Of a DNA stretch of 64,000 nucleotides, positions 10,655-62,375 are shown in pieces. Position 1 is the stretch's first letter. Every line of letters starts with the position of its first letter. The DNA is from an uncultured Candidatus Saccharibacteria bacterium (GTDB lineage Bacteria; Patescibacteriota; Doudnabacteria; UBA920). Location: positions 820,152 through 884,151 of the forward strand of contig CAYYWQ010000001.1 in assembly GCA_964474825.1 (NCBI GenBank). The letters are read 5' to 3'. Both the position numbers and the translations under genes were made by a program. The notes under the pieces were generated by a model. It searched no databases. It worked only from the letters and a program-made list of their open reading frames with translations, and was not told the DNA's origin.

Positions 10655-11689
10655 ATGGCAGAAAAAAAACATTTACCAACATATTTAATAGTAATAAGCT
10701 ACTGCGTCGCAGTATTTGTGGGAGCGGCGGGAGCTTCGGTCATTTGGCATAATGGCGGCCAAAAAACCTTACAAACAGTTGCCGCGCAAATTAAGCCGTT
10801 GCGGCAAAAAAATAACCCTTACCAATATATTAATCCCCTGCTGGGTTATGAAGTACCCGGCAATATTAAAGAGTTTAACGACTACGAGCCATTGCGGCAC
10901 AAAATTACCGAGGTCATTAACCAAAACATTGAACATAAACCCGACAGCTACGCTATTTATTTCCGCGATATAACCTTAGGACGCTGGAGCGGTGTCAATG
11001 AAGACACAGCCTACGCGCCCGCCAGTATGATGAAGGTCGTTATAATGATAGCTTACTTTAAGCAGGCGGAAACCGACCCGAACTTACTGGAAAAAACTTA
11101 TACCTACTCTTCCGCGGTTGGAAGCCAAATTAATGAAGTGCCTTTTGAAACTCCTTCGGAGCTGCAAATAAATAAAAGCTACACTGTGCGCCAGTTAATT
11201 GACGCCATGATAATCAATTCGGACAACGGCGCTAAAAATGTTTTACTGGATAATTTAAACCAAAATAACCTGGACGAAATTTATACCGACCTTGGACTGC
11301 CAAACCCCAGCCAGTCGGACAATTACCTAATAACGCCTAAGCAATTTTCTCTTCTGCTTCGCGTCCTTTATAACGGCAACTATTTAAGCCGCCAATATTC
11401 CGAACTGGCGCTGCAAATTATGAGCCAAGCCAAATACAACGAAGGCTTAGTCTCAGGGCTTCCAACCGGAACAACAGTGGCCCAAAAGTTTGGGGAAAAT
11501 ATCAGCACCGCGGAAGACTCTCTTACGATCACCCTGTCTAACTGCGGGATAATTTACCACCCCGGACACCCTTACATTTTATGTGTTATGACCAAGGGCT
11601 CAGACTTAAGTGGCCTTACCAAAACTATTGTTTCCATTTCCAGAGCTGTCTGGGAGGAGGTTGACTCTTACGCAAACAATAAAAAATAG
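10655..11689 (+). CDS. Membrane-anchored serine hydrolase, class A beta-lactamase-like fold
   Basis: N-terminal TM helix. SxxK (ASMMKV), SDN (NSDNGA) and a KxG-like (AQKFGE) motif are present. Confidence 0.5.
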   Translation: MAEKKHLPTYLIVISYCVAVFVGAAGASVIWHNGGQKTLQTVAAQIKPLRQKNNPYQYINPLLGYEVPGNIKEFNDYEPLRHKITEVINQNIEHKPDSYAIYFRDITLGRWSGVNEDTAYAPASMMKVVIMIAYFKQAETDPNLLEKTYTYSSAVGSQINEVPFETPSELQINKSYTVRQLIDAMIINSDNGAKNVLLDNLNQNNLDEIYTDLGLPNPSQSDNYLITPKQFSLLLRVLYNGNYLSRQYSELALQIMSQAKYNEGLVSGLPTGTTVAQKFGENISTAEDSLTITLSNCGIIYHPGHPYILCVMTKGSDLSGLTKTIVSISRAVWEEVDSYANNKK

Positions 11690-23618: not shown

Positions 23619-24797
23619 TTATTTCCTGGCTTTAGAAAGTTTTTTAAGCTCCCTTACCTTGTCTGTTCTTTCCCACGGAAATTTAACGTCTGTTCTGCCA
23701 AAGTGGCCGTAGGCCGCGGTTTGTTCGTAAATTGGTTTTTCCAAACCTAATTGCTTAACTATGTCCGCTGGCTTCATTGGAAAAATTTGCTCAACTATAT
23801 TTTCCAATTTGTCGTCCGAAATTTTTCCGGTGCCATAAGTGTCTACCATAGCGCTAACCGGTTTTGCCACGCCAATGGCGTAAGCCAACTGTACCAAACA
23901 TTTTTTAGCAAGGCCCGAAGCCACAACATTTTTGGCAATGTAGCGAGCGGCGTAAGCAGCGCTTCTGTCTACCTTAGTAACACACTTACCAGAAAATGCG
24001 CCGCCGCCGTGTGGGGCATAGCCCCCGTAAGTGTCTACTATAATTTTGCGGCCAGTTAGGCCTGCGTCTGCGGGCGGCCCACCAATTACAAACCTACCTG
24101 TGGAATTTATAAATACTTTTACATTTTTGTTAAACCATTTGCCAAGCACAGGCTTTATAACCTGGTTTGTAATGTCGGCACGAAGCTGCTCTGTAGTAAC
24201 ATCTTCGCTATGATGCGCAGCAATAACCACAGTAGTCACAGTTTTTGGCTTGCCTCCAACATATTCAATACTAACCTGACTCTTGCCGTCTGGCCGCAAA
24301 TACGGTAATTTTTTATTCTTGCGTACTTCAGCTAATTTTCTTGTAAGACGATGCGCCAGTGAAATAGGCAGCGGCATTAACTCTTTAGTTTCGTCGCAAG
24401 CAAAACCAAACATAAGACCCTGGTCACCCGCGCCCTGCTCTTTAAACTCTCCTTTACCTTCGTCTACGCCCTGGGCTATGTCTGGCGACTGTTCGTGCAA
24501 AGTGGAAATAACGCCGACGTCTGAAAAACAAAAGCCATATTCTGGTTTGTCGTAACCAATTTTTTTAAGCGTCCTGCGCACAACCGCCTGAATGTCTACA
24601 TAGGCTTTAGTCCTGGCCTCGCCGCCAACTACCACTAAACCTGTGGTGGCAAAGCACTCAATGCCAGCATGAGCTTTTTTGTCCTGCTTAAGCATTTCGT
24701 CATAAATGGCGTCACTAATTTGGTCGCATACTTTGTCCGGATGTCCTTCTGTTACGGACTCGGAGGTAAACAGTTTGGTTTGTGCTGATATTTTCAT
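23619..24797 (-). CDS. metK: S-adenosylmethionine synthetase
   Basis: [18 protein letters not shown] and GGGAFSGK motifs. Confidence 0.9.
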
Positions 24798-24869: not shown

Positions 24870-25003
24870 ATAAAAAAATCCGCCAAAGCGGATGGATAAT
24901 TTTATCTTCCCCGCGAGGGGCTAGAATTAGCACCGTATCGCCTTTCGGCGGATTGGTTGCTGGCAGGTCATTGGGCTAGTTCCCTAACTGCGCTCTTGAT
25001 AAA
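24870..25003 (-). promoter_or_regulatory. SAM-I (S-box) riboswitch with expression-platform terminator, in the metK leader
   Basis: Minus-strand RNA UUAUCAAGAG...UAGGGAACUAGCCCAAUGA...GCAACC...GGUGCUAAUUCU...GAAGAUAA matches the SAM-I conserved core. It is followed by the hairpin AUCCGC-UUUG-GCGGAU plus a U7 run (24873-24896). Confidence 0.65.
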
Positions 25004-25020
25004 TATTAAGTTGTAAAAAC

Positions 25021-27306: not shown

Positions 27307-27774
27307 TTATTCTTTATCTGCCTCATCTATTTTTACCGGCACGTCTGTAATTTCTTCCCCTTCCGGAAACAATTCTTTATACAAAGTCCCAAGCACACCA
27401 TTTAAAAATTTGCCGCTACCATCCCCGCCAAAAGTTTTGGCTAATTCCACGGCTTCGTTAATCGCCACTTTAGGCGGCACGGCTTTTAAAAACATAAGTT
27501 CAAAAATACCCAAACGCAAAACGCTCCGGTCCACGCCGTCTATTTGGTCCAGTGGCCACTCCGGCGCGGTTTTAACAATAATTTTGTCTATTTCTTCCAA
27601 ATTATTAGCCACGCCTTCGGCCAACTCAAAAATAAAAGACGTGTCTTCCATTTCGCCGGAAAATTCCGCAATATGGTTTTTGACGATCGTCTTTAAATCT
27701 TCCTGCCTCTGTTTAAAATCCCATTCAAACAGGGACTGCATGGCAATGGTTCGTGATAGATGCCTATTAGCCAT
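27307..27774 (-). CDS. nusB: Transcription antitermination factor NusB
   Basis: 155 aa. [18 protein letters not shown]-terminus. Confidence 0.8.
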
Positions 27775-27799
27775 TTGTTTTCAAGAATTTCTACTAAAG

Positions 27800-27971
27800 T
27801 TATTTAGTAACTTTACGTCCCTTATAATAACCGCAGCTCATGCAAGGTAAATGAGGCTTGGTCGGGCTGCCGCAATTTTTACAAACTGCAAAAGAAGTAG
27901 CTTTTAAAGCGTGGTGGCTTCTGCGCTGGTTACGTCCACTCCGGGTCTTATGTTTCTTTGGAACTCCCATG
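27800..27971 (-). CDS. rpmF: 50S ribosomal protein L32
   Basis: Hand translation gives MGVPKKHKTRSGRNQRRSHHALKATSFAVCKNCGSPTKPHLPCMSCGYYKGRKVTK. It is below the ORF-track size cutoff. Confidence 0.7.
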
Positions 27972-28102
27972 GAATTGAATTTAAGATTAAAAATTTAAGA
28001 AAGTAAACAAATTATAGCGAATATTGGCACTTTCGTCAATTGTCCCGCCTGGAAATATAAACCTTAAAAAACCGGCGCGCAACCAAACATCGTTGCGCGC
28101 CC

Positions 28103-28612
28103 TTAGCCGTTGCTCCTCTGCCAAGATCTGAGCTCATGGAGCCACAGTACCCTCTCCCAGTTGTAAGGGAGCTTCTTGGCAGGAACAATGCTAAAAAGAA
28201 AAAAGTCGTCCAAGTCATCCCACCGCCACCCAATGCGGGTGTGGTACATTTCTTTATTGGTGTACGCAACATAGTATAGCTTCACCTTCCAGTAGCTTGT
28301 GGAAACTACTGTGCGAGACACCTGCCATTGGCCGGGCAGCGGTATGGGTTTGGGGTGACCTTCGTAAGTGCTGTAGCTCTGGTTTCCCAGAACCATTAGC
28401 GGAGGGTCGATACCGCACAGCACGGTATCCTTCCACTTTACAAAAGTTATCAACCCCCAAAGATAGTCGGCGTGATAACCGTCTTTACGTTTATCCACCA
28501 AACACCCGCCTCCCCCGTATTCCAAAAACACCGGGAGAACGTAGATGCCATAGGCGAACAACGGAATGAAAGTTACCAAAAATAACATCAAAAACTTCCG
28601 CCTTTTGGACAC
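28103..28612 (-). CDS. Hypothetical membrane-anchored protein (GTG start, GC-rich codon usage)
   Basis: SD GAGGAGG 6 nt upstream of GTG. N-terminal TM helix. Confidence 0.45.
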   Translation of the reverse strand: MSKRRKFLMLFLVTFIPLFAYGIYVLPVFLEYGGGGCLVDKRKDGYHADYLWGLITFVKWKDTVLCGIDPPLMVLGNQSYSTYEGHPKPIPLPGQWQVSRTVVSTSYWKVKLYYVAYTNKEMYHTRIGWRWDDLDDFFLFSIVPAKKLPYNWERVLWLHELRSWQRSNG

Positions 28613-28834
28613 TTAAGTCCTCCTCTAATAAAACAAACTTTAGCAAACAGCTCTATTTATTGCAAGCAATAATAAAAGACGTTTTTGCGAAGAAAAACGT
28701 CTTTTATTATTCTGTATTGTAAACCGTTGACTATGACAGGAGTTAATTTAAATTTGTGTCTTGCGATACAAACTTACATTAACCATAGTCAACGGATCAC
28801 AAAAAAGAAAGTGGGAGAGGGGCGGACGATCTTG

Positions 28835-28969
28835 TCATTCTGTGCCCCTTCCTTTGTAATTACTCTTGTCGGAGCGGTCCGACCGACTAATAGGAGGCTC
28901 TACCAGAATACTAAGTAGAACCAAAACTATTACAATCAGCCAACCGTAACCGACAAAAAAATCTGCCAT
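28835..28969 (-). CDS. Small hydrophobic peptide, 44 aa (MADFFVGYGWLIVIVLVLLSILVEPPISRSDRSDKSNYKGRGTE)
   Basis: ATG preceded by GGAGGGAAG. Single TM helix. Confidence 0.35.
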   Translation of the reverse strand: MADFFVGYGWLIVIVLVLLSILVEPPISRSDRSDKSNYKGRGTE

Positions 28970-29049
28970 CTTCCCTCCTTACGCTGGACCGCGGCGGGCC
29001 CAGGGAGCAAACCGCAAAAGACTTTACGGCCCGCTTTCGATTCACGAAG

Positions 29050-29142
29050 TTAGTGGCAGTGCTGATCCCCTGCAATCAACTGAACCACCGCCATCAAGAG
29101 AAAAAAGATGGCTGTAATGGCAGTAATCAAATCTCCCGCCAT
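29050..29142 (-). CDS. Small hydrophobic peptide, 30 aa (MAGDLITAITAIFFLLMAVVQLIAGDQHCH)
   Basis: SD AAGGGGGA upstream. The ATG overlaps the upstream peptide stop. It is in frame with a longer TTG-start ORF that has no SD. Confidence 0.3.
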   Translation of the reverse strand: MAGDLITAITAIFFLLMAVVQLIAGDQHCH

Positions 29143-29267
29143 TAATCTTTCCCCCTTTCCCAAACCAGGACCGGAACAAGCCCGATCCAAAGCAGCGCTT
29201 GGAACCACCAAGCCTGGCGATGGCGCTGCACCCTGCAGTGCCACCTTGTTTCGGTCTTTACCTTCAT
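29142..29267 (-). CDS. Small peptide, 41 aa (MKVKTETRWHCRVQRHRQAWWFQALLWIGLVPVLVWERGKD), translationally coupled to the next peptide
   Basis: SD GGAGG 6 nt upstream. Its stop overlaps the next ATG (TAATG). Confidence 0.3.
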   Translation of the reverse strand: MKVKTETRWHCRVQRHRQAWWFQALLWIGLVPVLVWERGKD

Positions 29268-29458
29268 TCCCTACCTCCAAACCTGCCCACTAAAATTTAA
29301 CAGGCAAATTTGGAAGTCGTATTTTAAAAAATTTGGGTGGGAGAGTGAAAAACTACGAACAACATCACTCTCCCCATTCTGCAATCAATCGCGATCCTCC
29401 TTTGCCCCGGGTAACGGGGCGATGTGTCTTCCCGCGCGGCGGCGGGATTATCTCGTGC

Positions 29459-29605
29459 CTATCGGTACAACATTCTGGCTGAGAACTGCCGTCCTAGCAT
29501 CTCAAGCCAATCCGAGTGGGTCAGGATTAATATCATGGCCCCACCCAAAAAAACCCAACAAATCCACGGGATTCTTACCCGTGGGAAACGGATATGAAAC
29601 GTCAC
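29459..29605 (-). CDS. Small hydrophobic peptide, about 48 aa, GTG start (VTFHIRFPRVRIPWICWVFLGGAMILILTHSDWLEMLGRQFSARMLYR)
   Basis: SD GGAGGAAGGAG 5 nt upstream of GTG. TM helix. Confidence 0.3.
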   Translation of the reverse strand: MTFHIRFPRVRIPWICWVFLGGAMILILTHSDWLEMLGRQFSARMLYR

Positions 29606-29829
29606 CCGATTCTCCTTCCTCCCGGCGTTTGGGGGACTACTTCCTTTCGGAAGCATTCACGCGCGTGAGGATAAAAATTCCAAATTATTTTGGAAACTTT
29701 ATTCCAACTGCGTTATGAACATTCTATTCCTTTTTCTATTTTTTTCAAGCCAGTACCTTAATGTCTGATACTTTGGCCGCGTTAAGTTTGGGCGGGGTCG
29801 TGGACATGTTCTGTCCACGACCCCGCGTG

Positions 29830-30006
29830 CTAACGATGGATAATGATAATGGCGAGGGCGATAACAGCCGTCGCGCTCCCCATAAAAACAACCCTGTACA
29901 GTAGCTCCCAGGACCCCCACCACTCCTGGAACCGTTTGCTGAAACAAAACATTACCAGCAAAACTAACAGGACAAACGCAACAAAGAGATCTCGGTAATA
30001 GATCAT
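29830..30006 (-). CDS. Small two-TM peptide, 58 aa (MIYYRDLFVAFVLLVLLVMFCFSKRFQEWWGSWELLYRVVFMGSATAVIALAIIIIHR)
   Basis: SD AAGGAGGAGGAG immediately upstream. Below the ORF-track cutoff. Confidence 0.35.
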   Translation of the reverse strand: MIYYRDLFVAFVLLVLLVMFCFSKRFQEWWGSWELLYRVVFMGSATAVIALAIIIIHR

Positions 30007-30678
30007 CTCCTCCTCCTTATTTTTCTATAATCTGCGGAAAGGGCGTGGGCAAAATAGGCACTTTAAAAGGGACGCCGACCGTCCCTCTCTTATATTAAAT
30101 TTTGCCAAAACCTTTTCCGCAGACAAATTTTGTAGAAACAAGACTGGCAACTGGCTGGATAACCCTCCAATCGCCAAACTTTTTCCTGCAAACTTATTTT
30201 CACAATTGTGGGTCTAAACAAACGGATGAGGCCAAAAGGTCTAAAGCGACCTCATATAAATTCGCCTTCCTGTTAGGCCCACTATAGTGAAAATAAACTA
30301 AAAACCGTATATTCAATACAGGAGAATCAATTAAAAATTATTCTTGTATGCAATATACGGCTTTATTGCGCCGCCGATTCGGTTTAACGAAATCAGCAGC
30401 ATGTTGTTTGTCCCCACACCAATCTCCATCAAATCTTTTCTAACAATAATTGAATCTCTTAAACTAGTGGGAAATTTTATTCTTAACTAACCTGGTGAAG
30501 ATTAGTGTAGGGACACCCGTATATTCTCCTGCAAAAACAGACGGATACTATATTTGTGTTGTAAAAGAAAAATCATGCTACATTTAGCATGACCAAACAT
30601 TCTACACCTTTTTCACCCTTTTGTCAAGAGTTTTTAAGGCTTTGATAAAAACTTGGCTTATTTAAGATAATATTTTAA

Positions 30679-30975
30679 TTAATTAGCGTGTCTTTTCTCC
30701 CATTCGTTGTGTAAATCTACCCACATTTTATCCAACTCCATCGTAATCACGGCTTCCTCATTTGGGGTGATAAGTTTCGGCCTTTTATCAATCTTTTTAT
30801 AAATAAACCAATAAATATTTCGTATCCGCTCCTTAAGCCAATCATCAGTTTCTAAGGCCGCAATCATTGCCCGCGTTTGCGTGAGATTTAAATAATGAGC
30901 GTGCAAAATCATATCTTTAAACTCTTGGTCTGTAGGATCTTCCATACCCTCTGGAGTTGGAAATTCTCTCGCCAT
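30679..30975 (-). CDS. Hypothetical protein (98 aa)
   Basis: ORF only. Confidence 0.35.
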   Translation of the reverse strand: MAREFPTPEGMEDPTDQEFKDMILHAHYLNLTQTRAMIAALETDDWLKERIRNIYWFIYKKIDKRPKLITPNEEAVITMELDKMWVDLHNEWEKRHAN

Positions 30976-31101: not shown

Positions 31102-32775
31102 TTAGTAATCCATTCCACCCATACCGCCCATGCCTCCAGGCATGCCGCCTGCTGGGGCTGAGGATTTTGGTTCTGGCTTGTCGACAATTATTGCTTCGGT
31201 GGTAACTAATGTGGAAGCAATGGACACCGCGTTCTCTAAAGCTAAGCGAGTAACTTTAAGCGGGTCAACAATTCCGGCTTTCATCATGTCCGGTTCCTGG
31301 CCTTTGGTCCAATCGGCTTCGTCGTATTTGGTAAAATCATAACCCGCGTGTGTGCCGCCGTTTTGAATGTAGGTAATTACTCCGGTTGGCTCAACGCCGC
31401 TGTTTTGGGCAATTTGCCTAAGCGGTGCTTCCAAAGCTTTTCGAACAATTTTGTATCCGGTCTTTTGCGCGCCGTGGGCTTTGGTCATTTCTTTTTCGAG
31501 CATTGGCGCAATTTTAGCAAGAGCCGCGCCGCCTCCGGCAACAATTCCTTCTTCCACAGCCGCTTTGGTGGCGTTTAACGCATCTTCAATTTTAAACTTT
31601 TTGGCTTTCATTTCCGTTTCCGTAAAAGCGCCAACTTTAATAACGCCCACGCCGCCGGCCAAACGGGCCATGCGTTCCTGGAGTTTTTCTTTGTCGTAAT
31701 CCGAAGTAGATTCTTTAATTTCCGCTTTAATTTGGTTAACGCGGTCTTCAATATTCTTTTTGTCGCCCTGGCCGTCTACAATGGTGGTATATTCTTTGGT
31801 GGCAACAACTTTGCGGGCGCGACCCAGCTGGTTTAATTCAGTCTTGTCTAACTTAAGGCCCATGTCTTCCGAAATAACCTGGCCGCCAGTAAGCACCGCA
31901 ATGTCTTGCAACATTTCTTTGCGCCTGTCGCCAAAACCCGGGGCTTTTACCGCCAAAACATTAAAGGTACCTTTGAGTTTGTTAATGACAAAAGTGGTCA
32001 AAGCTTCGCCTTCCACTTCGTCCGCAATAATAACAATATCTTTTTTACCGCTCTGCGCGACTTTTTCTAAAATTGGCAAAATTTCCTGCACACTGGAAAC
32101 TTTTTTGTCCGTAATTAAAATGTACGCGTCTTCCCAAACAGCTTCCATTCTCTCAGCGTTAGTCACCATGTATGGGTTTACAAAACCTTTGTCAAAGCGC
32201 ATGCCTTTAACCACTTCTTTTTCAAGCCCGGTAGTCTGGCCTTCTTCCACGGTAATAATGCCTTCGTGGCCGACTTCTTCCATAGCTTCGGCAATAAGTT
32301 TGCCAACTTCTTCGTCTAGCGAAGCAATGGTGGCTACCTGTTGGATTTCTTCTTTATTCTTTACGTCTTTTTTTACTTTTATAAGTTCGCTAACGACAAA
32401 CCTAACCGCGCTGTCCATGCCCTTCTTTATTTCGTTAGCTTGGGTTGAGGCAAGAGCCGCAGCTTCAAAGGCTTCCTGGATCATAGTTTGGGCCAGCACA
32501 GTTGCAGTAGTCGTACCGTCACCGGCTGCTTCGTTGGTTTTGTTAGCCACCTCCTGAATGAGTGACGCTCCCACGTTTTCAAACTTGTCTTCAAGTTCAA
32601 TGTCTTTGGCAACGGTAACGCCGTCGTCAGTAATTACTGGACTGCCAAAACCTTTGTCTAAAATTACTGCCTTGCCGGTTGGTCCCAGCGTAACTTTAAT
32701 GGCATTTGCGGCTTTGTCTACACCTGCCTTAATGGCCTGCTTTGCTTCAAAACCGTATTTTATAATTCTGCTCAT
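31102..32775 (-). CDS. groL: Chaperonin GroEL
   Basis: [13 protein letters not shown], the C-terminal GGM repeat, and full-length similarity to GroEL. Confidence 0.95.
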
Positions 32776-47352: not shown

Positions 47353-48024
47353 TCAATGAACGTTCGGCGGACGAAATCTGGCAGACTTGATGTAAATGCC
47401 CGCGCCCTCCAGGTGGGGTGCAAGATAATCAGTGACCATCTTGCGAAACTCCTTCTGCTGGTTGGCGTCGTAGGAGTTGTAAAACCTCCCTAAGGCAGTG
47501 TGGTTCGCGTGCTCGAACTCGTTCAGATACCACTGCAGAGTGGCCTGCGGTGTCGCGATCCACTCCGTCTTACGACGCCGTAGGTAACCCTCCACCGTTC
47601 CCACGGTTTCCAGCTCAACTTCACAAACCAACTCCTTGACCTCAGGGTTCGGGTTAATGGGGCTTGAGCCAACCCGAGCCGCTGCCGTAAGGCGCGAGTA
47701 CACTTCTCTTGTTGTGCCCTTGAGACGTTTGTCCCACGACCACAGAAGGGCGCCGTTGGGAAAATCAACAACTACTCGGTCGGCCGACAGGATCACAGTT
47801 TGAGAATCAATTCGCGTAACCGCCTGCCACCAGCCCAGGACAGCGACAAAGATAAATAACACCATCCCTGTCAAAGCCAAGTCAAAGAAATCCGGCGCTT
47901 TTCTCTCTTCATTACAGTCGTCCCTGTACTTCTTATTCTGCCATCGGTAAACCATAACGGGAACCCCGATGCCGACAGCAAAAGCCAAAGCAAGTACCAC
48001 AAAAGTCGGGTATGCATCAAGCAA
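47353..48024 (-). CDS. Hypothetical membrane protein in a short GC-rich segment
   Basis: 223-aa ORF with 2 TM helices. Local GC is clearly above the flanks. Confidence 0.45.
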   Translation of the reverse strand: MLDAYPTFVVLALAFAVGIGVPVMVYRWQNKKYRDDCNEERKAPDFFDLALTGMVLFIFVAVLGWWQAVTRIDSQTVILSADRVVVDFPNGALLWSWDKRLKGTTREVYSRLTAAARVGSSPINPNPEVKELVCEVELETVGTVEGYLRRRKTEWIATPQATLQWYLNEFEHANHTALGRFYNSYDANQQKEFRKMVTDYLAPHLEGAGIYIKSARFRPPNVH

Positions 48025-49023: not shown

Positions 49024-50232
49024 TTACTTCATCTTCTTGCGAATGAAGGCGGGGATGTCCAGTTCGTCGTCTGAGGCAGAGGGATCTTCTGCGGTTGGTT
49101 TAGTAATGGGACGAATGGGCTGGGGTTGGAACGGCTGCTGCATGGGCTGGGAAGGCTGGGGGTTAAACAAAGGCTTCCTGACTTCAGTCGGCTGCAGGGG
49201 CCTGGCTTCCAATTTTTTAGTTTCCTCGCGGGTAGGAAGCTGCACCGGCATGGGACGTTTGTTGCCTTCGTCAAAACCCGTGGCAATAACAGTAATGCGG
49301 ATTTCGTCGCCCATGGCCTCTTCTACCACCGCGCCAAACTTTACTTTGGCGTCCGGGTCTATACTCTTGGTAATAACTTTGGCGGCTTCGTCTATTTCAA
49401 ACATTCCCAAGCTGCTGCCGCCGGTAATGTTAAACAACACTCCCCTGGCGCCGTCTATTGTCATTTCAAGCAGCGGAGAATTAATAGCCATACGAGCCGC
49501 GTCTTGCGCGCGGGTTTCACCGCTGGCTCTTCCAATACCCATAAGGGCCGTGCCCGCGTCTTGCATTATGCTGCGCACGTCCGCGAAGTCCGCGTTAACA
49601 ATTCCGTGGGTTGTAATTAAATCGGAAATACCGGCAATGCCCTGGCGCAAAACTTCGTCTACTGTTTTAAAAGCTTCCATGAGGGAAGTTTTTTTGTCTA
49701 TAATTTGAAGTATGCGGTCGTTGTGAATGGAAATTATGGCGTCTACTTTGTCTTTTAAATTGTCATAACCTGCCTCGGCAACTTCCTTGCGCTTGCTGCC
49801 TTCAAAAGTAAACGGCTTGGTTACAACTGCCACTGTGAGCACGCCTTTATTTTTTGCAAGCTCGGCTAAAATAGGTGCCGCGCCTGTTCCTGTGCCGCCG
49901 CCCAAACCACAAGTTATAAAAACCATGTCAGCGTTGTCTACAACTTCTTCCAGCTCCTCTACGCTTTCTTCTGCCGCCTGCCGTCCGAGTTCCGGATTCA
50001 TTCCCGAACCAAGGCCTTTGGTAATACTTTTGCCAATATGGACTTTGCGGTCTGCCTGGTTGTTGTGGAGCGCCTGGGCGTCGGTGTTAACCGCAATAAA
50101 TTCCACGCCGCGGATACCCAACTGGCTCATGCGGTTAACGGCCGAAGTGCCGGAGCCGCCAATGCCTAAGACCTTAATTCTGGCAAAAGTTTCGATTTTT
50201 GGTTTCACTTCCATTGATTGGTGTTTTTTCAT
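49024..50232 (-). CDS. ftsZ: Cell division protein FtsZ
   Basis: VLGIGGSGTSAVNRM (T1) and GGGTGTGAAP (T4). Confidence 0.9.
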   Translation of the reverse strand: MKKHQSMEVKPKIETFARIKVLGIGGSGTSAVNRMSQLGIRGVEFIAVNTDAQALHNNQADRKVHIGKSITKGLGSGMNPELGRQAAEESVEELEEVVDNADMVFITCGLGGGTGTGAAPILAELAKNKGVLTVAVVTKPFTFEGSKRKEVAEAGYDNLKDKVDAIISIHNDRILQIIDKKTSLMEAFKTVDEVLRQGIAGISDLITTHGIVNADFADVRSIMQDAGTALMGIGRASGETRAQDAARMAINSPLLEMTIDGARGVLFNITGGSSLGMFEIDEAAKVITKSIDPDAKVKFGAVVEEAMGDEIRITVIATGFDEGNKRPMPVQLPTREETKKLEARPLQPTEVRKPLFNPQPSQPMQQPFQPQPIRPITKPTAEDPSASDDELDIPAFIRKKMK

Positions 50233-56058: not shown

Positions 56059-58029
56059 TTACTTCTTGTCCTTGGAATCCGGCTTCTTGGCCGGTTTTTC
56101 CTTTGGCGCCGGAACATACAGTTCCGGGTAAAGCCGCGCAGCAGCCCGCAGCGCTTCCTTCCGAGAAGACCTGCTCGTGCCTTTCGGCTTGAGCTTATCC
56201 TGAAGCAAGGCCTTAGCGGCTGTGTCGGTCCGGGCAATCTTCTTTCCCGTGTCGCCGGTCGGCGACAGGTCAGTTTCGATCTTGGCGACTTTGGCCGCCA
56301 CCGGCTTCAACTCCGCCTCGATTTGCTCATTCGTGTACTTCCTTGCGTCGTACAAAATGAGCGACCGCTCGGTATTGCTGAGCGATCCGGTAGCGGTTCC
56401 GACCACGGGCGCATACTGGGCAATTAAAGCCCTGAAACCCGCCGGGTCAGCCGCAGCGACCTTTTGCAGGTCAGCGAGTGTAACCTCGTCTCCCCCTGCA
56501 TCAATCGCCTCCTTGATCTTAGACTGAAGGGACTGAAGGGCCTTCATCCGGCCCTCCAAGTCCGCAACCTGCGAGCGGGTTTTCACATCAACCACCACCT
56601 TGGTGAGGGTGGTAGTCTTGGTCGGCACCGGAGCAGAAACGGAAACTGGCGGCCTTGCAGCAAGCTGCTTGGCCACATAGCTCCGCATCATTTCCGTCGC
56701 TCCATCCACAACTCCCGCCTGGTCAGGCGGATAGAAGCGGAGGAGCCGACCAAGATTCTGCCCGTTCACCACCATGTTCGGCCGGGAGGCCGGAACATTG
56801 CGGTCAACAGTCAGGTTAAACTCGGTCCGGCTGCCGGACGAACGGATGTTGGCAACGCGAACGCCGGGAACAGCGCGCCCCGTCTGTACATCGGTAAACG
56901 ACACAGACGAAGCGCTGGTCGGCATACCGTCACAAACAAAGTGGCGGGTGTAACCGGTTGCCAGGTAAGGCATACCGGTCTGGAAATCGCCGCACTCGGC
57001 TGAGAAGAGGCGGGTCGCCCCAACCAGCGTTAACACTGCGATCATTGCGACCTTCGCGCCGCCATTACCGCCATTTCCACCGCCAGCGAGTGGCGGCTTG
57101 TTGGAGTCGTCTGCCTTGGGCGGGTCGGTCGGAGGCGGGGGCGGTGGAGGAGGAGTGTTCGGAGTCGCCAAGGTCACTTTAGCCTTGACGAATTTTGTAG
57201 AATCCGACTTGAGGGCGGCCGTGACGGTCACGAACCGCTCTTCCTCCAGCTTATCCGGCGCGGTGTATTCACCGTCGTCGGAAATCTTCCCGGCATCGTC
57301 CCCTGCGGGACGCAGCCACCAGAAAAGCGGTTCGGTCGCGCCAGTCACGGTGAACTTCTGCTTTTCGCCGGCCTTCAACGTGATCGTCTGGGGCGAAATC
57401 AGAAGGGTAGCAGGAGGCGGAGGTGGAGGCGCAGTGGTGGTAGCCGGACGAACCATGAACTTCACGGTCGCCGTTTTGGTCGGATCGAACACCGAAGCCA
57501 CCGTGATGGTTTCTTCGGTCTCGGCCTTCACGTCCGGAGTCGTGTAGCGACCGGTCAGGGGTGAGATGGTTCCGTGAGCGGCGGTCCACTTAACATCCGT
57601 GGAAGCCCCGCCAACAGCGTCAACCTCTGCCTGAAAATTCCAGGTCGCGCCCGCGGTAATCCCGCGCATAGGCGAAGCCTTGATGCGAACTCCGCGAACT
57701 GCAGGAGCCGCAGGCGGAACGACCGGAGGCGGAGTGGGACGGACCGGGGGAGCAACAGGAGGTGGGGGCGGAGGAGTAGGACGAACAGGCGGCACGGGCG
57801 GGGCAGACGGTTTGCGGGTAATCAGTTTGTAAATCAGCCACACCGCAAACAAAATCGCCGCGAGCAATAGTAGCCCGTCCCAGGGAATTTCCCACCCGCC
57901 GCCAGTCCCGGACTCGGGAGCAATGGCGGTCGGCACGGGGTCGTAAACCTGGGCCATCAAAGACACAAAAGCCATGAGGATGCCGGCGAGGAGCCGGGTC
58001 CAGATACTGATAAGGGTAATGCGCTTCAT
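56059..58029 (-). CDS. GC-rich island protein: two-TM, proline-rich (PPVPPVRPTPPPPPP) linkers, Ig-like segments, large C-terminal domain
   Basis: The ORF start was moved to MKRITLISIW, which has SD TAGGAGA 7 nt upstream. Confidence 0.5.
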   Translation of the reverse strand: MKRITLISIWTRLLAGILMAFVSLMAQVYDPVPTAIAPESGTGGGWEIPWDGLLLLAAILFAVWLIYKLITRKPSAPPVPPVRPTPPPPPPVAPPVRPTPPPVVPPAAPAVRGVRIKASPMRGITAGATWNFQAEVDAVGGASTDVKWTAAHGTISPLTGRYTTPDVKAETEETITVASVFDPTKTATVKFMVRPATTTAPPPPPPATLLISPQTITLKAGEKQKFTVTGATEPLFWWLRPAGDDAGKISDDGEYTAPDKLEEERFVTVTAALKSDSTKFVKAKVTLATPNTPPPPPPPPTDPPKADDSNKPPLAGGGNGGNGGAKVAMIAVLTLVGATRLFSAECGDFQTGMPYLATGYTRHFVCDGMPTSASSVSFTDVQTGRAVPGVRVANIRSSGSRTEFNLTVDRNVPASRPNMVVNGQNLGRLLRFYPPDQAGVVDGATEMMRSYVAKQLAARPPVSVSAPVPTKTTTLTKVVVDVKTRSQVADLEGRMKALQSLQSKIKEAIDAGGDEVTLADLQKVAAADPAGFRALIAQYAPVVGTATGSLSNTERSLILYDARKYTNEQIEAELKPVAAKVAKIETDLSPTGDTGKKIARTDTAAKALLQDKLKPKGTSRSSRKEALRAAARLYPELYVPAPKEKPAKKPDSKDKK

Positions 58030-58540
58030 CGAGTTATCTCCTAAAAAGGTTGCGAACTCTCCACGGACCCTATGACATCTAGGACCCAAAATATCTCGCT
58101 AAGGCACTCACGGCCTAGCACAGCAATGGGTAAAGTGAGTGCCCTTTGCGGTAACCTACCCATAACAAAATGAGTAAACAGCCGCAAAGGACAGCTCACA
58201 AAAAAACAAAAAGTAACGTTTATATCCCCCTTACAAAATTTTTAAAGAACTTTGGAGCCAAAAACTACGGGCTCACGGCTGGCTTCCCTAAAAAAGCCAC
58301 CCACAAGCCCACAATTAACTATTCAACTTTGACCTAGTATTATACACCTTTTTAGGCTTTTTGTCAAGGTCTAAACCAAAAACTCCTTTAAGTTTAACAA
58401 ATTCCTCTTAATTGAAACAAGAACCCCAAACTTATCTTCCGGCCGCGTAGGCAAGAAAAGAAAGTTTGGGGTTCTCTTGGTAATGATGTACTGGTCTGTT
58501 CACGGCCGCCGAGGGGCGGCGTGTCGCCGGAAATTAGTGG

Positions 58541-60298
58541 TTAGGGATCGACGAATCTTGCGGCAAGGCCGGAGACGGTGGCAATGGCCCCGTCGGTAAA
58601 CTTCTTGACGGCGCTGGGCTCCACATATGGAACAACCAACTGAGCAAACTGTTCGTCGCCCAGGACTGCTCGGGCCCAGCGCACACGGCGGAAATCGTCG
58701 AGATTGGTGGGGTTCTTGCGTTCGTAAAGAATCAAGTTGTCCAAAGACTCGGCCGCGACGTCTACCGTCGTTTTGCCGCCTTCGGAAAGTTCTAACACGA
58801 ACTTGGACGGGAAACTACAGAGTGCTCCCTGACAAAGTTGGAAGTACAATTGCCGGAACCCTTCCGACAGTTGGTGCTTCCTAACAAGAACAGCAAGACC
58901 GTCCAGGCTCTCCTGGAAGTCTGAGTAGGTAATAGCGAAATTGGGCTCACTGCCCATGGAGACAACAACCGCGTTGGCGAGCTCAATCAGTTTGGCGGGC
59001 TCGCCGACGAAAAGCGTTTTTGCCGTAAGATTGTCGTCCTTGCTCGCAGCGACAACAAACTTTTTGAAAGTTACTGCCGTGGGGTCGGAGTCGGTTTTGA
59101 AAATCCGCTCCTTCAGGGAAGTAAGCTGACCGGTCGAGAAACCGCGGTATTGAAGCGGAGCCTCGGGAGCCGGCACGCCTTGCGCAACTGCGACGAGGAT
59201 CTTCTCCTCTGCGGGAGCCGGGGAAGGAGCAATACTCTGAACGTGCGCTCGCCTTTTCCAAAGGCGGGGCGGGTCGACCGAAACGGTTTCAACGTCGGAT
59301 GTCGCGAGCAAAACGGCAAACGTAGGGTTAGCCTCCGGTTCCGTCCTGCCGGTTACAATCTTGAAGTCAGGAGCGACATTATCGCCGCCGAAGTTGCGGA
59401 TTTGCGAATAGAGCACCTTCATCATATGAGGCGTCCACTTGCCGGTGCGGTAAACAAGGGCGCGTTGGAGAATTTTGCCGCGTTCAAAGTAGTTTGGGAT
59501 TGCTCGCGCCCAAACCTCGGCCACGGTTTTTTCCACGTCCCCAATTTCGGAGATTGCGGGCAGCTCACCATACACAGGATACAAGTAGCCGCCGCCGTCC
59601 TGGTAAATAAACCGCTGGACCAAGTCGACAATGTCAATCTGGTCCGGGTTGAGCACAATGCGTCCTACGCAGTGGCTCAAGATTTGCTGGACGCGCCGGT
59701 CAAGCTCGGAAAACGCCTCGTCTTCTTCCATATCCACGAGGTTCTTGTCGGTGTCGAGGGCTGTTGTGTCCACGGCAATAATGCGCACGCCGAGACCAAC
59801 AACTTCCGCGAGCTGCTTTTTGTAGCCCTCAAGTTCCCCGGGGGAAACCGAAGGGTTGTCGCTGGAAGGGACGCTGACCACAACAATCGGGACAACCCCT
59901 TCCTGCAGCAGCAGCTCCACCATAGGCTTAAGCGTGCCCGTTCCGGTCCCCTTGCCCAGGGCAAAGAAACTGACGGCAATATCTAGCGGCTGAAGCGCCG
60001 CCGAAACTTTGTCGCGATGAAATTCAAACGCTGCCCGCGCGACCTCGGGGTTAAAGCCTGTGCCGTCGCGGCCCGTGCCGTCTTCACCTGTTCCCAGCAG
60101 CACGGAAGAGAACTCCAAACCGAATTCCCCGGCTTTAAAAAACACTTCCACTGCTTCAAGTGTGGCGTGATTTGTGTCGAGCGATGCATACCGCTCGGCT
60201 GGCCATCCGCTGCTTCTTCCGTAAGCAGCAAAGCGTTTGGCCATTTGGTTGCCGCCATAGCCGGAGCCAATGACTCCGACCGTTAATCTATTGGACAT
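58541..60298 (-). CDS. Divergent tubulin/FtsZ-superfamily GTPase, TubZ-like (585 aa with a long C-terminal extension)
   Basis: T1-like GVIGSGYGGNQMAKRF. SLDTNHATLE (compare FtsZ NTDAQAL). T4 GKGTGTG. T7-like LNPDQIDIVD (N-x-D-x-x-D). SD GGGAGGGG 4 nt upstream of the ATG at 60296-60298. Confidence 0.65.
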   Translation of the reverse strand: MSNRLTVGVIGSGYGGNQMAKRFAAYGRSSGWPAERYASLDTNHATLEAVEVFFKAGEFGLEFSSVLLGTGEDGTGRDGTGFNPEVARAAFEFHRDKVSAALQPLDIAVSFFALGKGTGTGTLKPMVELLLQEGVVPIVVVSVPSSDNPSVSPGELEGYKKQLAEVVGLGVRIIAVDTTALDTDKNLVDMEEDEAFSELDRRVQQILSHCVGRIVLNPDQIDIVDLVQRFIYQDGGGYLYPVYGELPAISEIGDVEKTVAEVWARAIPNYFERGKILQRALVYRTGKWTPHMMKVLYSQIRNFGGDNVAPDFKIVTGRTEPEANPTFAVLLATSDVETVSVDPPRLWKRRAHVQSIAPSPAPAEEKILVAVAQGVPAPEAPLQYRGFSTGQLTSLKERIFKTDSDPTAVTFKKFVVAASKDDNLTAKTLFVGEPAKLIELANAVVVSMGSEPNFAITYSDFQESLDGLAVLVRKHQLSEGFRQLYFQLCQGALCSFPSKFVLELSEGGKTTVDVAAESLDNLILYERKNPTNLDDFRRVRWARAVLGDEQFAQLVVPYVEPSAVKKFTDGAIATVSGLAARFVDP

Positions 60299-60953
60299 CT
60301 TTCCCCTCCCTAAAATCAAAAAGTAACCAAACCTGGTTTGTCTCCACGGCCCGCGCAAGGCGAAAACGTGGATCCGAAAATTCTTTTTCAATCAGCCTTA
60401 ACTCTTCGAGCGCGTGGCCTTGAAAGCCATGGCCCAAAGTTGGGTAAGTGCGGGACGGGTTCGGTCTGAGGCCAACCCAGACACCAGGCAATTCCAACCA
60501 CGGCTGAACGCTATAGCTTAAAGGGTCCCGGTGTGCGGGACTCGACCGGCGAACAAAAAATTGCTCGCCAATAAGCTCGCCGTGTTTGACCAACACCTCT
60601 CGAAGATACGTGTGAGCAGGTGGTGGCCGCCAATTGTATATATTTTGCGCCTGCAAGTCAAAACTCAAACCCTTTGTAAAACAGGGCTGAGCAAAATCGA
60701 CCGGAAAGAACCGCAGACTTGCTTCCGCAAATGCCTGATTTGCTAAAAGCAAGGAACGTATAAAACTATCGCGTTCGGGACCGTTAAGAACTGCGTGGTC
60801 GAAACGGATTACTCCATCCCGAACCACAAAATTCTGTTCGTAATCCGTGTTCCGGTTATGGTCGCGAAGGAACCGAAGCAAAAATTCGAGGAACTCCCTC
60901 AAAGCCTGCTCCAGCTCCCGGCCATTCCGGGAAAAACCAGACATCATATTCAT
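60288..60953 (-). CDS. Hypothetical protein, translationally coupled upstream partner of the TubZ-like gene
   Basis: 11-nt overlap (ATGTCCAATAG). SD GGAGG 6 nt upstream of the internal ATG. Confidence 0.4.
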   Translation of the reverse strand: MNMMSGFSRNGRELEQALREFLEFLLRFLRDHNRNTDYEQNFVVRDGVIRFDHAVLNGPERDSFIRSLLLANQAFAEASLRFFPVDFAQPCFTKGLSFDLQAQNIYNWRPPPAHTYLREVLVKHGELIGEQFFVRRSSPAHRDPLSYSVQPWLELPGVWVGLRPNPSRTYPTLGHGFQGHALEELRLIEKEFSDPRFRLARAVETNQVWLLFDFREGKDVQ

Positions 60954-60981
60954 TGGTTTCCTCCACCAATTTGTCAAAGTT

Positions 60982-61010
60982 CCAGAGAGATATTATAAAC
61001 AGAAGCAGGT
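60982..61010 (-). promoter_or_regulatory. sigma70-like promoter TTGAAA-17-TATAAT for the two-gene TubZ-like operon
   Basis: The reverse complement of 61005-61010 is TTGAAA and of 60982-60987 is TATAAT. Confidence 0.45.
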
Positions 61011-61182
61011 ATTATTTCAAGGTATATTATTGGCAAATTGCGCTTAAATATAAGATAAAATTTTTTAACCCTCTTTATAAAAATAAAGATTCCTCGCAGC
61101 AGAGTTATGAATGCGGAACCTGTGTTAGCTCCTCGGCTCGCTTATCCAGATTTCCGTTGGAATAGACACACCTACGTCGCTA

Positions 61183-61241
61183 ATAAAAAAGGCCGAGTGC
61201 GGGATCAACCATCTTAGGAATGGGATCCGCGCGCACTCGGC
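61183..61241 (-). terminator. Strong intrinsic terminator downstream of the 61288..62375 gene
   Basis: GCCGAGTGCGCGCGGATC...GATCCCGCACTCGGCC hairpin, followed by a T6 run on the minus strand. Confidence 0.5.
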
Positions 61242-61287
61242 GTTGGAAGGTTTGACGATGCTTAACGCGTAACTAAAAAGTATAGCG

Positions 61288-62375
61288 CTATTTAATTGGA
61301 ATTATTGGCCCGCCTCGACCGCCGCTTGCGACGGGAGGCCTACGGGGTACGGGATCGCGAGAGCGATCCTGCTCCTGTTTCAACGCATTGATTTGCGTTG
61401 TCAGTTTGTCATTCTCATGTCTACCCGCCGCCCGGACTTCGGACAGCTTAAAGTAAAAAACAATTGACACGATTACTAACCCTGAAGCTAGTACAGTGAA
61501 AACTGCGACAGCAACTCCAATCCACAAAGGCGGGATCGGCGCCCTGGTAACCACCAGGTCGTAAACCACAGTGTATCCAGTATGCTCGATCTGGAAACCC
61601 GCAAATCCTTCGCCCAGAATTTGAACAAGCATCTGCCCGTTTTCCTGGCGAACTTTTACCACATCAAACCCCGTCTGTTGGTCTAACTTCCCCAACTCCA
61701 CGGTAAAAGTATCCCCCACTTTCAGACTCATATGTTGAACAATCATATGATGGGACGGAAGCCCAACTTCTACCGGCTCTACGGTTTTAGGGTCAATCGT
61801 AATAATCATCTCTTTCGAATTATCTTGCCTGGACACCACGGTGTCGGAAGCGGCCGGTGGGGCCGCCAAAGTCTTAGGCTGGGAAATAACGAAAGTGTCG
61901 CTCGGTGCTGGGATGGTGGCAGGAGTGGCGGACGCCGAAGTTTTCGGGGCCGCGGGAGAAGCAGACTGAGGAGCCGGGGAAGATGTTTTCGCTACCACGG
62001 CTTGGGAGGAGGTTGAAATTCGGGAAGCAAAAAACACATTCGCTTCCTTAAAAAACAGGTTCGCCAGTTTCGGGTCTGCCTTAGCGTCTACCGCCAGCCA
62101 AAACTCCGGCTGGAGATGGGCGTCTTCGGGATTAATGAACTCACCCTTTGCCGGCTTTTGCACGGCGGGGATAAGGTTCGCGAAGTTGCGAACCTGCGGG
62201 AACAACTGGCCGCAGTTGTGCTGCAACCACCGAAGTCCATCCAGGGCGCCTTCGCCCTTGCTCACATCAACCGAGAGTCGATAGCGTCCGTCCACGGGCG
62301 ACGAACATTCTTGTGCCGTAGCGGCCGGAGCCGCCAAAAGCGCAAGGAAAAACAACAAAGCTATACGCATCGTCA
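61288..62375 (-). CDS. GC-rich island protein: signal peptide, Ala/Pro/Ser-rich linker, C-terminal TM anchor and basic tail
   Basis: Start chosen at MTMRIALLFFLALLAAPAATA, with SD AGAGGA. Confidence 0.5.

Follow-up and report, generated by a model that had tools for sequence, protein, structure and literature searches.

A probable hypervariable micro-membrane-protein operon region among candidate structured RNAs at the groEL-rpmF locus of Doudnabacteria-like CPR bacteria

Introduction

Several bacterial systems combine small membrane proteins with RNA-level control. A hairpin that sequesters the Shine-Dalgarno (SD) sequence is characteristic of the hok, tisB, zorO and aapA1 mRNAs, which belong to type I toxin-antitoxin modules. 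OLE RNA is a large structured RNA that is encoded beside, and works with, the membrane proteins OapA and OapB. Small membrane proteins of the AcrZ, MgtS, KdpF and CydX type are usually encoded by single genes, belong with a partner complex and are conserved at the level of the genus. The genomes of CPR bacteria (Patescibacteria) are tiny, about 1.2 Mb, and have little spare room for dispensable DNA.

Here we analysed a segment between groEL and rpmF in a CPR genome; the whole stretch of DNA that was studied, 64,000 nucleotides, is called the window. A preliminary description of this DNA had pointed to a series of small hydrophobic peptides in the segment. We consider it reasonably probable that in this genome the segment represents an operon region for micro-membrane proteins that is hypervariable and at the same time conserved across a lineage of Doudnabacteria-like CPR bacteria. 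Judged from the sequences, the small ORFs are most likely real, translated and fast-turning-over micro-membrane proteins under RNA-level control. In the literature on CPR small proteins and CPR structured RNAs nothing specific was found.

Results

The segment next to rpmF is richer in GC, as had been described: the island at 28103-30020 has 47.5% GC in comparison to 41.9% in its flanks, a rise that is real but modest. GC3 was 0.57-0.67 in p169, E58 (0.61), B41, C30 and D48, compared with 0.39-0.46 in nusB, rpmF and groEL, and it was 0.40 in A44. Raised in-frame GC3 in the small ORFs resembles that of the conserved p169. The neighbouring genes are groEL, a 98-aa orphan, p169, rpmF, nusB, HU, a Band_7 protein and metK. 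On the minus strand hydrophobic codons are favoured by its richness in G+T. By length alone the ORFs do not stand out, since ORFs of 30-98 codons are numerous on both strands; the coding signal is the combination of SD, start codon and transmembrane (TM) segment within one frame, and not the length of the ORF.

Five small ORFs are located on the minus strand, with the coordinates and reading frames that the preliminary description had given correctly. E58 (29830..30006, 58 aa, ATG start) has two TM helices. Its start region reads GGAGGAGGAG, then ATG, and the SD upstream of the ATG is AAGGAGGAGGAG (30007-30018, minus strand); a perfect 12-bp GC hairpin lies 3' of the ORF at 29793-29827. D48 (29459..29605, 48 aa) has a basic N-terminus and one TM helix, starts with GTG behind AGGAG and a 6-nt spacer, and has a structured leader that lies 3' of a promoter-like site at 29721-29748. 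B41 (29142..29267, 41 aa) begins with ATG after GGAGG and a 6-nt spacer; its N-terminus is strongly basic (+5), and its one TM segment is borderline, with a hydropathy of 1.79 (KD, 17 aa), just under the threshold of 1.8. C30 (29050..29142) is an acidic TM peptide of 30 aa with a pI of 5.0, and its own SD is weak and G-rich. The ATG of C30 overlaps the stop codon of B41 (UAAUG), which confirmed the TAATG overlap from which a coupled pair had been proposed earlier. A44 (28835..28969, 44 aa) has an N-terminal TM helix and a charged tail, and GGAGGG precedes its ATG by 4 nt.

The earlier view that at least five minus-strand ORFs of 30-58 codons each follow a strong GGAGG-type SD held for four of them (E58, D48, B41 and A44) but not for C30. 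A TM helix had been assigned to every small ORF; this stood for E58 (two), D48, C30 and A44, whereas B41 was borderline. It had also been stated that none of the ORFs is annotated by size-thresholded gene finders. This is not fully right: small membrane-protein genes of this kind are missed by such annotation, but gene finders do recognise E58, which appears in the NCBI and Logan gene sets. Three further frames were rejected. F37 (29271-29384, TTG start, SD-preceded) was considered as one more gene, the sixth, or as a leader of the mok type; since it overlies conserved hairpin d and lacks a hydrophobic segment, it is probably no gene. An extended frame of 76 aa for C30 and a 98-aa plus-strand ORF at 29422-29718, both lacking an SD, were judged spurious.

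Seven GGAGG sites were found on the minus strand in 28623-30016 (1.4 kb), in comparison to about 1.2 expected pro rata from the 53 sites on the whole 64-kb minus strand. The SD density in the segment is about six times the window average and the spacing from SD to start is correct; most genes in the window have no SD. TM-like segments were defined as stop-free stretches with a KD value of at least 1.8 over 17 aa. On the minus strand of 28620-30020 there were six, all inside E58 (two), D48, C30 or A44, compared with 1.4 +/- 1.4 in shuffled sequences, and two of 300 shuffles reached six.

No match to the small-ORF peptides was found in Pfam, NCBIfam, PHROG or PADLOC, and the match to YldA was negligible (E = 0.35), so the functional labels suggested in the preliminary description are not supported. 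A six-frame Pfam search over 28613-30700 also gave no match, and the reading as fragments of a disrupted larger gene was rejected. E58 is an orphan that matched only itself among 5.8 billion clusters. Because homologs of the five window ORFs were not detected in 25 related loci, there is no direct evolutionary evidence for these five frames themselves. A concatenated-peptide search had no match, but it likewise missed its built-in positive control, E58 itself. A44 showed weak similarity to a 53-aa ORF in locus L006 (Smith-Waterman z = 6.2), for which BLASTP gave no alignment. The near-identical contigs L001 and L002 showed no polymorphism.

The larger ORF p169 (28103..28612, minus strand) encodes a conserved protein of 169 aa, in which a beta-sheet domain lies between a TM helix at the N-terminus and a further helix at the C-terminus. 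The membrane protein of this length with GTG start and SD that had been reported was borne out, with GGAGG 6 nt before the GTG. A promoter-like site of its own lies at about 28633-28665, and a terminator follows the gene at 28074-28101. Homologs with 44-64% identity adjoin rpmF in six loci. The family has 77 representatives, and p169 matches the family profile over its full length, with the motifs YHxDYxW and RIGWRWDD and the N-terminal TM helix. The AF2 model had a pLDDT of 90.6, and there was no counterpart in Pfam, in a PDB sequence profile search or in Foldseek-PDB. No relatives were found in JGI metagenomes, and one was found in GTDB genomes, in a Candidatus Doudnabacteria MAG. The small ORFs were also considered as decayed paralogs of p169; the family HMM, applied to the six-frame window and five loci, matched intact genes only.

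About 25 related loci showed one fixed order: groES-groEL, a structured RNA of about 300 nt, element b, a battery of small ORFs, hairpin c of about 100 nt, and rpmF-nusB. The synteny groES-groEL-RNA-gap-rpmF-nusB was kept in more than 20 loci, and the gaps were GC-raised in all related loci except L010. The gap ORFs of the relatives lie on the same strand, are SD-led, start with ATG, have about 40-70 codons and encode one TM segment. Among 22 loci (33.5 kb in aggregate), the sense strand had 165 SD sites, 57 of them with an ATG at 3-10 nt, giving 46 ORFs of at least 30 codons and 34 with a TM segment. The antisense strand of the same 33.5 kb had 81 SD sites, nine with ATG, three such ORFs and one with a TM segment. 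ORFs of 41-43 codons follow element d in five further loci (six of seven when the window is counted), and coupled second cistrons after the d-led ORF were also seen in L027, L028 and L037. The proposal of SD-led small membrane-protein genes is thus well supported by the window statistics together with the recurrence and strand bias in about 25 loci.

One orthologous pair in the relatives (L029/L023, 63 and 64 aa) had 62% identity and a dN/dS of about 0.19; frame, stop codon and the overlapping next ORF were all retained, and the indels were frame-preserving. By this sequence comparison, purifying selection acts on the pair. Further protein-level pairs were found between loci where nucleotide similarity is lost. 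The dN/dS check suggested earlier was made on this pair of relatives. Conservation of the peptides was seen as an architecture that recurs in about 25 loci, and no homologs of the window's own small ORFs were detected.

These data bear on the idea that no peptides are made, and that what lies from element b to element c is structured RNA that is not translated (an ncRNA or long UTRs) and whose ORFs arise from composition. It would fit the unconserved peptide frames of the window, the conserved RNA elements a, b, c and d, all four within or beside the region, the many GC hairpins, the artefactual F37 over hairpin d and the ORFs of similar length on both strands. We regard it as improbable, since the coincidence of SD, ATG and TM segment is strand-specific (34 against 1), the TM segments of the window are confined to SD-led frames, and both the L029/L023 pair and the similarity at protein level only speak for coding. 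Furthermore, the preliminary description had taken conserved nucleotides with unconserved peptide frames as the sign of an ncRNA; between the conserved elements, the nucleotide sequence was not conserved among the relatives either.

Content differs between close relatives, with L038 lacking an ORF that L037 has. Together with GC, GC3 and SD usage unlike those of the neighbouring housekeeping genes, and with further GC-rich SD-using blocks at 47.3-48.0 kb and 56-63.7 kb of the window, this could suggest a foreign island that was acquired recently, or the decaying cargo of a mobile element, from an SD-using donor of higher GC. The small ORFs would then be remnants or cargo without relation to the biology of the host, perhaps with leaderless or two-peptide bacteriocin-like peptides among them. 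However, because the same place and the same flanking RNA elements recur in more than 20 relatives whose GroEL proteins are 69-93% identical, the locus appears ancient and maintained, and no integrase, transposase or pseudogene remnants were found around it. No empty site (groEL-RNA-rpmF without a battery) was found in close relatives, and no near-identical island in an unrelated taxon. The bacteriocin-like label used earlier was not upheld: the peptides have no double-glycine leader and no Pfam or NCBIfam match, and there is no ABC transporter among the recognised neighbours and no C39 peptidase or immunity gene adjoining. We hold a foreign origin to be very improbable. As far as the compared sequences indicate, the locus is lineage-wide and hypervariable and not a one-off island.

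The region is rich in RNA structure, and some of the SD-like G-runs could be structural. Upstream of the battery, and outside the coordinates of the preliminary description, lies RNA a (30300..30592, minus strand), a putative structured RNA of about 293 nt with a 5' hairpin, P2, a long P3, P4 and a terminator hairpin P5 followed by a U-run. Its MFE was -102.5 kcal/mol (z = -8.35). The sigma70-type promoter TTGACA-17-TAGAAT (30599..30627, minus strand) scored 11/12 and is near-invariant in 21 loci, including the spacer. Homologs of RNA a were found in 22 metagenomic loci and in L003 and L004, always between groEL and rpmF, and 16 of 38 consensus pairs showed compensatory changes. As a candidate antiterminator pairing, the P2 loop ACAGGAGAA is complementary to the 3' strand of P5, UUCUCCUGU, in most loci; the changes in L004, L011 and L015 were uncompensated by eye.

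Element b (30196..30288, minus strand, about 90 nt) is predicted to fold into two stems, GUGGG..CCCAC on the outside and GAAGGC/GGCCUC, with an inner hairpin that varies. It had nhmmer matches in 22 distinct loci (E < 1e-3), and four of the 20 pairs in its consensus fold were compensatory. Between b and E58, a terminator-like hairpin GGGACGGUCGGCGUCCC followed by UUUU (30062..30090, minus strand) was recognised in the sequence and also appeared in the fold; after it comes a promoter-like TTGCCC-17-TATAGA (about 30024-30052, minus strand). At the other end of the battery, a bidirectional intrinsic terminator with a 19-bp stem is located at 28668..28711, where Rfam gave chance hairpin matches only.

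Element c (28710..28809, minus strand), which the preliminary description does not mention, is a hairpin of about 100 nt. Its apical loop (GCAA) is of the GNRA type only when the sense strand is read, and a UCCUG bulge is conserved in it. With nhmmer matches in 11 loci, the hairpin had compensatory changes in 30 of 41 consensus pairs and a covariation term of -9.2. An integron/attC reading of the inverted repeat at 28722-28795 was rejected, as this is a single long inverted repeat forming a covarying RNA hairpin with a GNRA loop; compared with the attC arrangement (R''/L''...L'/R', GTTRRRY), the arms miss the consensus by a base each, and there is no intI integrase.

For a, b, c and d there was no Rfam match with E <= 5 at 27700-30800, no match at gathering score in 20 homologous loci and nothing consistent at E <= 3 in six loci. 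ARAGORN had no match in the segment. Based on sequence and predicted fold, the four elements are previously undescribed conserved structured RNAs.

Element d (29273..29317, minus strand) is a hairpin of 21 bp, formed in the predicted fold by the pairing of CUUCCAAAUUUGCC with GGCAGGUUUGGAGG, and the SD of B41 is buried in it. The hairpin is kept in seven loci, with 87% of cells paired in comparison to 37-61% in slid controls. In 10 of 23 pairs both sides were altered, and the observed score was reached in none of 500 shuffles. By contrast with this covarying sequestration of the B41 SD, the strong SDs of E58 and A44 are predicted to be open.

Such a hairpin raises the question of type I toxin-antitoxin-like modules, in which the peptides would be membrane-depolarising toxins held by hairpin d and an RNA antitoxin (RNA a, element b or an unseen antisense RNA). 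The peptides have 30-58 aa, one TM segment and charged flanks (E58, D48, C30 and A44 are TM-like and B41 borderline), they form several tandem, rapidly diverging copies, and immediately upstream there is a structured RNA that has a strong promoter and a terminator. The SD-sequestering hairpin is conserved before B41 and its positional equivalents. Promoter-like and terminator-like sites also occur on the plus strand within the battery, but these are weak (9/12), about the chance level, and the antisense RNA is hypothetical. We consider these modules unlikely: an unguarded toxin would not be expected to have open SDs like those of E58 and A44, RNA a runs in the same orientation as the battery and was not found to be convincingly complementary to the small-ORF leaders, the pairing of P2 loop and P5 did not covary by eye, and neither NCBIfam nor Pfam gave a toxin family.

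Discussion

The sequence features, their recurrence in relatives, the strand specificity, the covariation in the RNAs and the purifying selection on one orthologous pair of the relatives agree in favouring a conserved locus with changing micro-membrane proteins. From these we infer translation of the five window ORFs, the transcript boundaries and any cellular role. The conserved strong promoter after groEL would drive the RNA a of about 300 nt, which would end at its intrinsic terminator. Element b would follow, then E58, D48, B41/C30 and A44, and hairpin c with the terminator would close the unit, after which come the independently promoted p169 and rpmF. Translation of the small cistrons would begin by canonical SD/anti-SD initiation, a mode that few genes of this genome seem to use, and their products may enter the cytoplasmic membrane as single- or double-pass micro-proteins. 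B41/C30 would be gated, with hairpin d locking the SD of B41 so that translation needs the helix to be opened, and C30 would be translated after B41 by termination-reinitiation. Peptide turnover would be so fast that only the architecture persists (SD, about 40-70 codons, one TM segment, a charged flank), which points to general membrane biophysics or diversifying selection. Our working guess is that the peptides are membrane-active, RNA-controlled and related to stress or interaction.

More tentatively, the whole groEL-rpmF locus may be one undescribed RNA/micro-protein system, a possibility to which we give limited credence. In such a system a, the riboswitch-like three-stem b, d and c would control or partner the diversifying membrane peptides, either as an RNA-guarded toxin or exclusion battery or as a membrane-tethered RNP like OLE-OapA, with a fixed address and a continually replaced protein content.

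Despite the tiny genome, about 2 kb are kept at a fixed address for a strongly promoted RNA, three more RNA structures and changing micro-proteins, and the initiation signal of the battery is one that most of the genome does not use. If the peptides are translated, the locus would show clearly how in nature small proteins arise and turn over rapidly while their post-transcriptional control is conserved. It would also provide several structured-RNA motifs new to Rfam and a way into the question of how episymbiotic bacteria change their envelope or protect themselves. In these genomes, a recurrent class of genes is concealed by the size cut-offs of annotation.

The locus can be compared with several known systems. 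In type III toxin-antitoxin (ToxIN) loci the order of promoter, structured RNA, intrinsic terminator (which could meter read-through) and effector ORFs is alike; however, RNA a is not a tandem-repeat antitoxin, and the ORFs encode tiny TM peptides and not endoribonucleases of the ToxN/AbiQ type. Two-peptide and leaderless class II bacteriocins are similarly tandem, small, hydrophobic or cationic peptides, some of them coupled, but here C30 is acidic, family matches are absent, and so are a double-glycine leader and transporter, immunity or regulatory genes. The type I toxins Hok, Fst/Ldr, TisB, ZorO and AapA1 share with the battery a size of 30-60 aa, a single TM segment, charged flanks, tandem fast-evolving copies and an adjacent small RNA gene, and for B41 also the upstream anti-SD, by which the ribosome-binding site is sequestered in a hairpin that is stable and conserved. 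They differ in that several cistrons here have strong open SDs and that up to six different peptides, without family match, occur in one array. By analogy, the locus may resemble OLE RNA with OapA/OapB, as a structured, strongly promoted and lineage-specific RNA lies beside small membrane-protein genes, but RNA a has no similarity to OLE or any Rfam family and its protein neighbours are hypervariable. The small membrane proteins known from Ribo-seq (AcrZ, MgtS, KdpF, CydX and the YldA type) are alike in size, single TM segment, own SD, often in lineage restriction, and in being routinely missed by annotation. In contrast to their usual single, conserved genes, the groEL-rpmF locus has a hypervariable multi-gene array framed by RNA motifs.

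Organisation of the locus

The region is read on the minus strand from groEL (32775..31102), at its upstream end, toward rpmF (27970..27800), which is followed by nusB. Its gene neighbours are typical for a reduced CPR/Patescibacteria genome, and the source contig is 1.21 Mb long. Further along the window, a SAM-I riboswitch (57 bits; 24899-25005, minus) lies upstream of the S-adenosylmethionine synthetase gene (23619-24797) in an ordinary arrangement. Five small minus-strand ORFs, named by their length in amino acids, were found in the interval: E58 (30006..29830), D48 (29605..29459, GTG start), B41 (29267..29142), C30 (29142..29050) and A44 (28969..28835). As described preliminarily, B41 and C30 form a coupled pair, overlapping by UAAUG, and the segment is GC-richer than its surroundings (47.5% in 28103-30020 vs 41.9% in the flanks). 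A 19-bp bidirectional terminator (28711..28668) precedes p169 (28612..28103, minus, GTG start), a 169-aa protein. An orphan ORF of 98 aa without family match (30679-30975, minus) is located between groEL and a structured RNA, RNA a; in the related locus L003 this position is occupied by an unrelated ORF of 85 aa. Between the consensus promoter of RNA a (30627..30599, minus) and E58 there is an ORF-free stretch of about 300 nt.

A conserved RNA framework

When the nucleotide sequence was compared with the first relatives, a conserved non-coding patch became apparent immediately outside the original finding. A pattern made from the 3' hairpin of this patch retrieved 36 metagenomic stretches, 22 of which carry a true homolog of RNA a. 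The order in all 22 is groES-groEL-[RNA]-gap-rpmF-nusB-HU on a single strand, with a gap of 0.7-2.4 kb. This fixed position throughout the lineage contradicts a recent horizontal acquisition of the segment. Four conserved elements (a, b, d and c) frame the small ORFs of the window, and covariation was observed in each of them.

RNA a (30592..30300, minus; about 293 nt) follows groEL in more than 20 related metagenomic loci. Its promoter, TTGACAAAAGGGTGGTTTTGGTGTATACT, is near-invariant including the spacer. The window copy has a folding energy of -102.5 kcal/mol (z = -8.35), and 16 of 38 pairs in helices P3-P5 show compensatory changes, part of P5 being invariant by construction because the retrieval pattern fixed it. 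Conservation is high in the 3' P4-P5 domain, in contrast to a 5' domain of variable length (about 210-510 nt overall). The 3' end is a hairpin with a U-run, i.e. an intrinsic terminator. No Rfam family matched RNA a in the window or the homologous loci. Six loci (L021, L023, L027, L029, L018, L020) have a tandem heptamer-like repeat insert (ATCTGTG/ATCTGCG) between P3 and P4 that the window copy lacks.

Elements b and c bracket the small ORFs. Element b (30288..30196, minus; about 90 nt, 22 distinct loci) comprises several stems, namely an outer one, a GAAGGC/GGCCUC stem and an inner hairpin that covaries; in L004 it is partly duplicated (CACTATCGTGGGCC box; 11219-11247 and 11323-11446). Element c (28809..28710, minus; 11 loci) is the long inverted repeat following A44, a hairpin of about 100 nt with compensatory changes in 30 of 41 pairs and a GNRA apical loop on the sense strand only. 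Element d (29317..29273, minus) is a 21-bp hairpin with the Shine-Dalgarno sequence (SD) of B41 as its 3' arm. Across seven loci 87% of its cells pair, compared to 37-61% with the partner slid, both sides have changed in 10 of 23 pairs, and none of 500 shuffles reached the observed score. Six of the seven loci have an ORF of 41-43 codons after it, and coupled cistrons often come next. Another ORF with an SD, F37 (29271-29384), was rejected as a gene since it spans this conserved hairpin.

Sequence signals of the small ORFs

GGAGG occurs at 53 sites on the minus strand of the 64 kb, approximately the number predicted from composition. Seven of these lie within 1.4 kb (28623-30016), four of them 4-6 nt before the start codon of an ORF of 41-169 codons (E58, B41, A44 and p169). 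D48 has AGGAG 6 nt upstream. A strong SD at the start is restricted to about one in seven of the window's long ORFs, among them groES and groEL, and is lacking in nusB, rpmF and HU. Strong SDs concentrate in the GC-richer blocks of the window, which contains no rRNA. Two such blocks (56059-63714 and 47353-48024; GC 0.53-0.60, GC3 0.56-0.67) differ from the remainder of the window in that their genes have strong SDs, and may represent a gene set of their own, acquired or specialised. A divergent Tubulin/FtsZ-family protein of 585 aa (58541-60298, E = 7e-9), with neighbours lacking Pfam matches, was detected there; the canonical FtsZ is at 49024-50232.

All stop-free segments resembling a transmembrane segment (TM) on the minus strand of 28620-30020 fall in the SD-led frames E58 (two), D48, C30 and A44, with six observed vs 1.4 +/- 1.4 in shuffles. 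In-frame GC3 is 0.57-0.67 for E58, B41, C30 and D48 and similar for p169 (0.63), as compared to 0.39-0.46 in host genes; A44 is the exception. ORF length alone is unremarkable, as both strands contain ORFs of comparable size. The preliminary description, which gave every small ORF a strong SD and a TM helix and considered none annotated by size-thresholded ORF finders, is confirmed with three small corrections: the SD of C30 is weak, E58 had already been called by gene finders, and F37 is an artefact. The TM-like segment of B41 is borderline.

Protein-level conservation and turnover

It had been proposed that frames lost in relatives within conserved nucleotide sequence would suggest a non-coding RNA. 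No match to the five peptides was found by tblastn in 25 related loci, and the nucleotide sequence between b and c was likewise unconserved, even where the relatives' GroEL is 88-93% identical to that of the window. E58 matched only itself among 5.8 billion clusters, the other four were absent from the protein collection searched, and none of the five matched Pfam, NCBIfam, PHROGs or PADLOC. Relics of p169 or of a Pfam domain were ruled out, as no such remnant was found.

The gaps of related loci have a GC content above their flanks in all but one (L010). They are filled by same-strand, ATG-started ORFs led by GGAGG or GGGAGG (median 52 codons), most of them with a single TM and charged flank; ATGA overlaps occur between several of them. 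We pooled 22 non-redundant loci (33.5 kb). The sense strand had 165 SD-like sites, 57 of them (35%) with an ATG at 3-10 nt, giving 46 ORFs of at least 30 codons, 34 with a TM segment. The antisense strand had 81 sites, nine with an ATG (11%, chance level), three such ORFs and one TM segment. L029 and L023 share an ORF of 63/64 aa with 62% identity in which start, stop and frame are kept; there are 16/16/28 substitutions at the three codon positions and a dN/dS of about 0.19, demonstrating purifying selection on this related ORF. Conservation extends, across a 6-nt indel, to the next, overlapping ORF, and several further pairs between loci are similar at the protein level only. The ORFs of sufficiently close loci behave as proteins. 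A purely untranslated RNA is contradicted by this dN/dS and by the strand-specific coincidence of SD, ATG and TM. In the otherwise identical contigs L037 and L038, most of an 85-aa ORF after hairpin d is deleted in L038 (oriented gap about 1040-1250), indicating strain-level presence/absence variation and turnover between near-identical strains.

p169 is absent from most related loci. Its homologs (44-64% identity) are rpmF-adjacent in every case, and the family has 77 representatives at 50% clustering, with one relative among GTDB genomes, a Candidatus Doudnabacteria MAG. The AlphaFold model (pLDDT 90.6, 48-sequence alignment) consists of a beta-sheet domain between an N-terminal TM helix and a C-terminal helix, without counterpart in Pfam, PDB sequences or Foldseek-PDB. 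p169 is a real, conserved and uncharacterised protein with a predicted membrane anchor.

Interpretation and comparison with known systems

Judged from sequence, the best-supported reading is that the window ORFs are real, translated micro-membrane proteins of a hypervariable operon region in a conserved RNA framework. The main uncertainty of this reading is whether these five frames in particular are translated, as we infer, and any physiological role of the peptides is putative. Upstream of E58, D48 and p169 there are candidate promoters, and a hairpin resembling a terminator is located at 30090..30062 (minus). Opening of hairpin d would allow translation of B41, and C30 could follow by termination-reinitiation at UAAUG.

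The bacteriocin-like peptides suggested preliminarily fail as an explanation, as the defining features of bacteriocins were not found. The locus resembles type I toxin loci in its SD sequestration, its adjacent RNA gene and its peptide layouts: E58 is a two-TM hairpin, C30 a bare acidic TM, the TM of D48 and B41 is preceded by a basic N-terminus, and A44 has a charged tail after its TM. However, no antitoxin RNA is evident at the locus and two cistrons have strong, predicted-open SDs, and we therefore do not claim membership. Searches of the literature on CPR small proteins and CPR structured RNAs yielded nothing specific. Both small membrane proteins and SD-sequestering leaders have precedents, whereas their combination between groEL and rpmF appears undescribed so far: a fixed chromosomal address within a CPR lineage, a strongly promoted structured RNA with three more covarying motifs absent from Rfam, and ever-replaced SD-led micro-proteins in a genome mostly without SDs.
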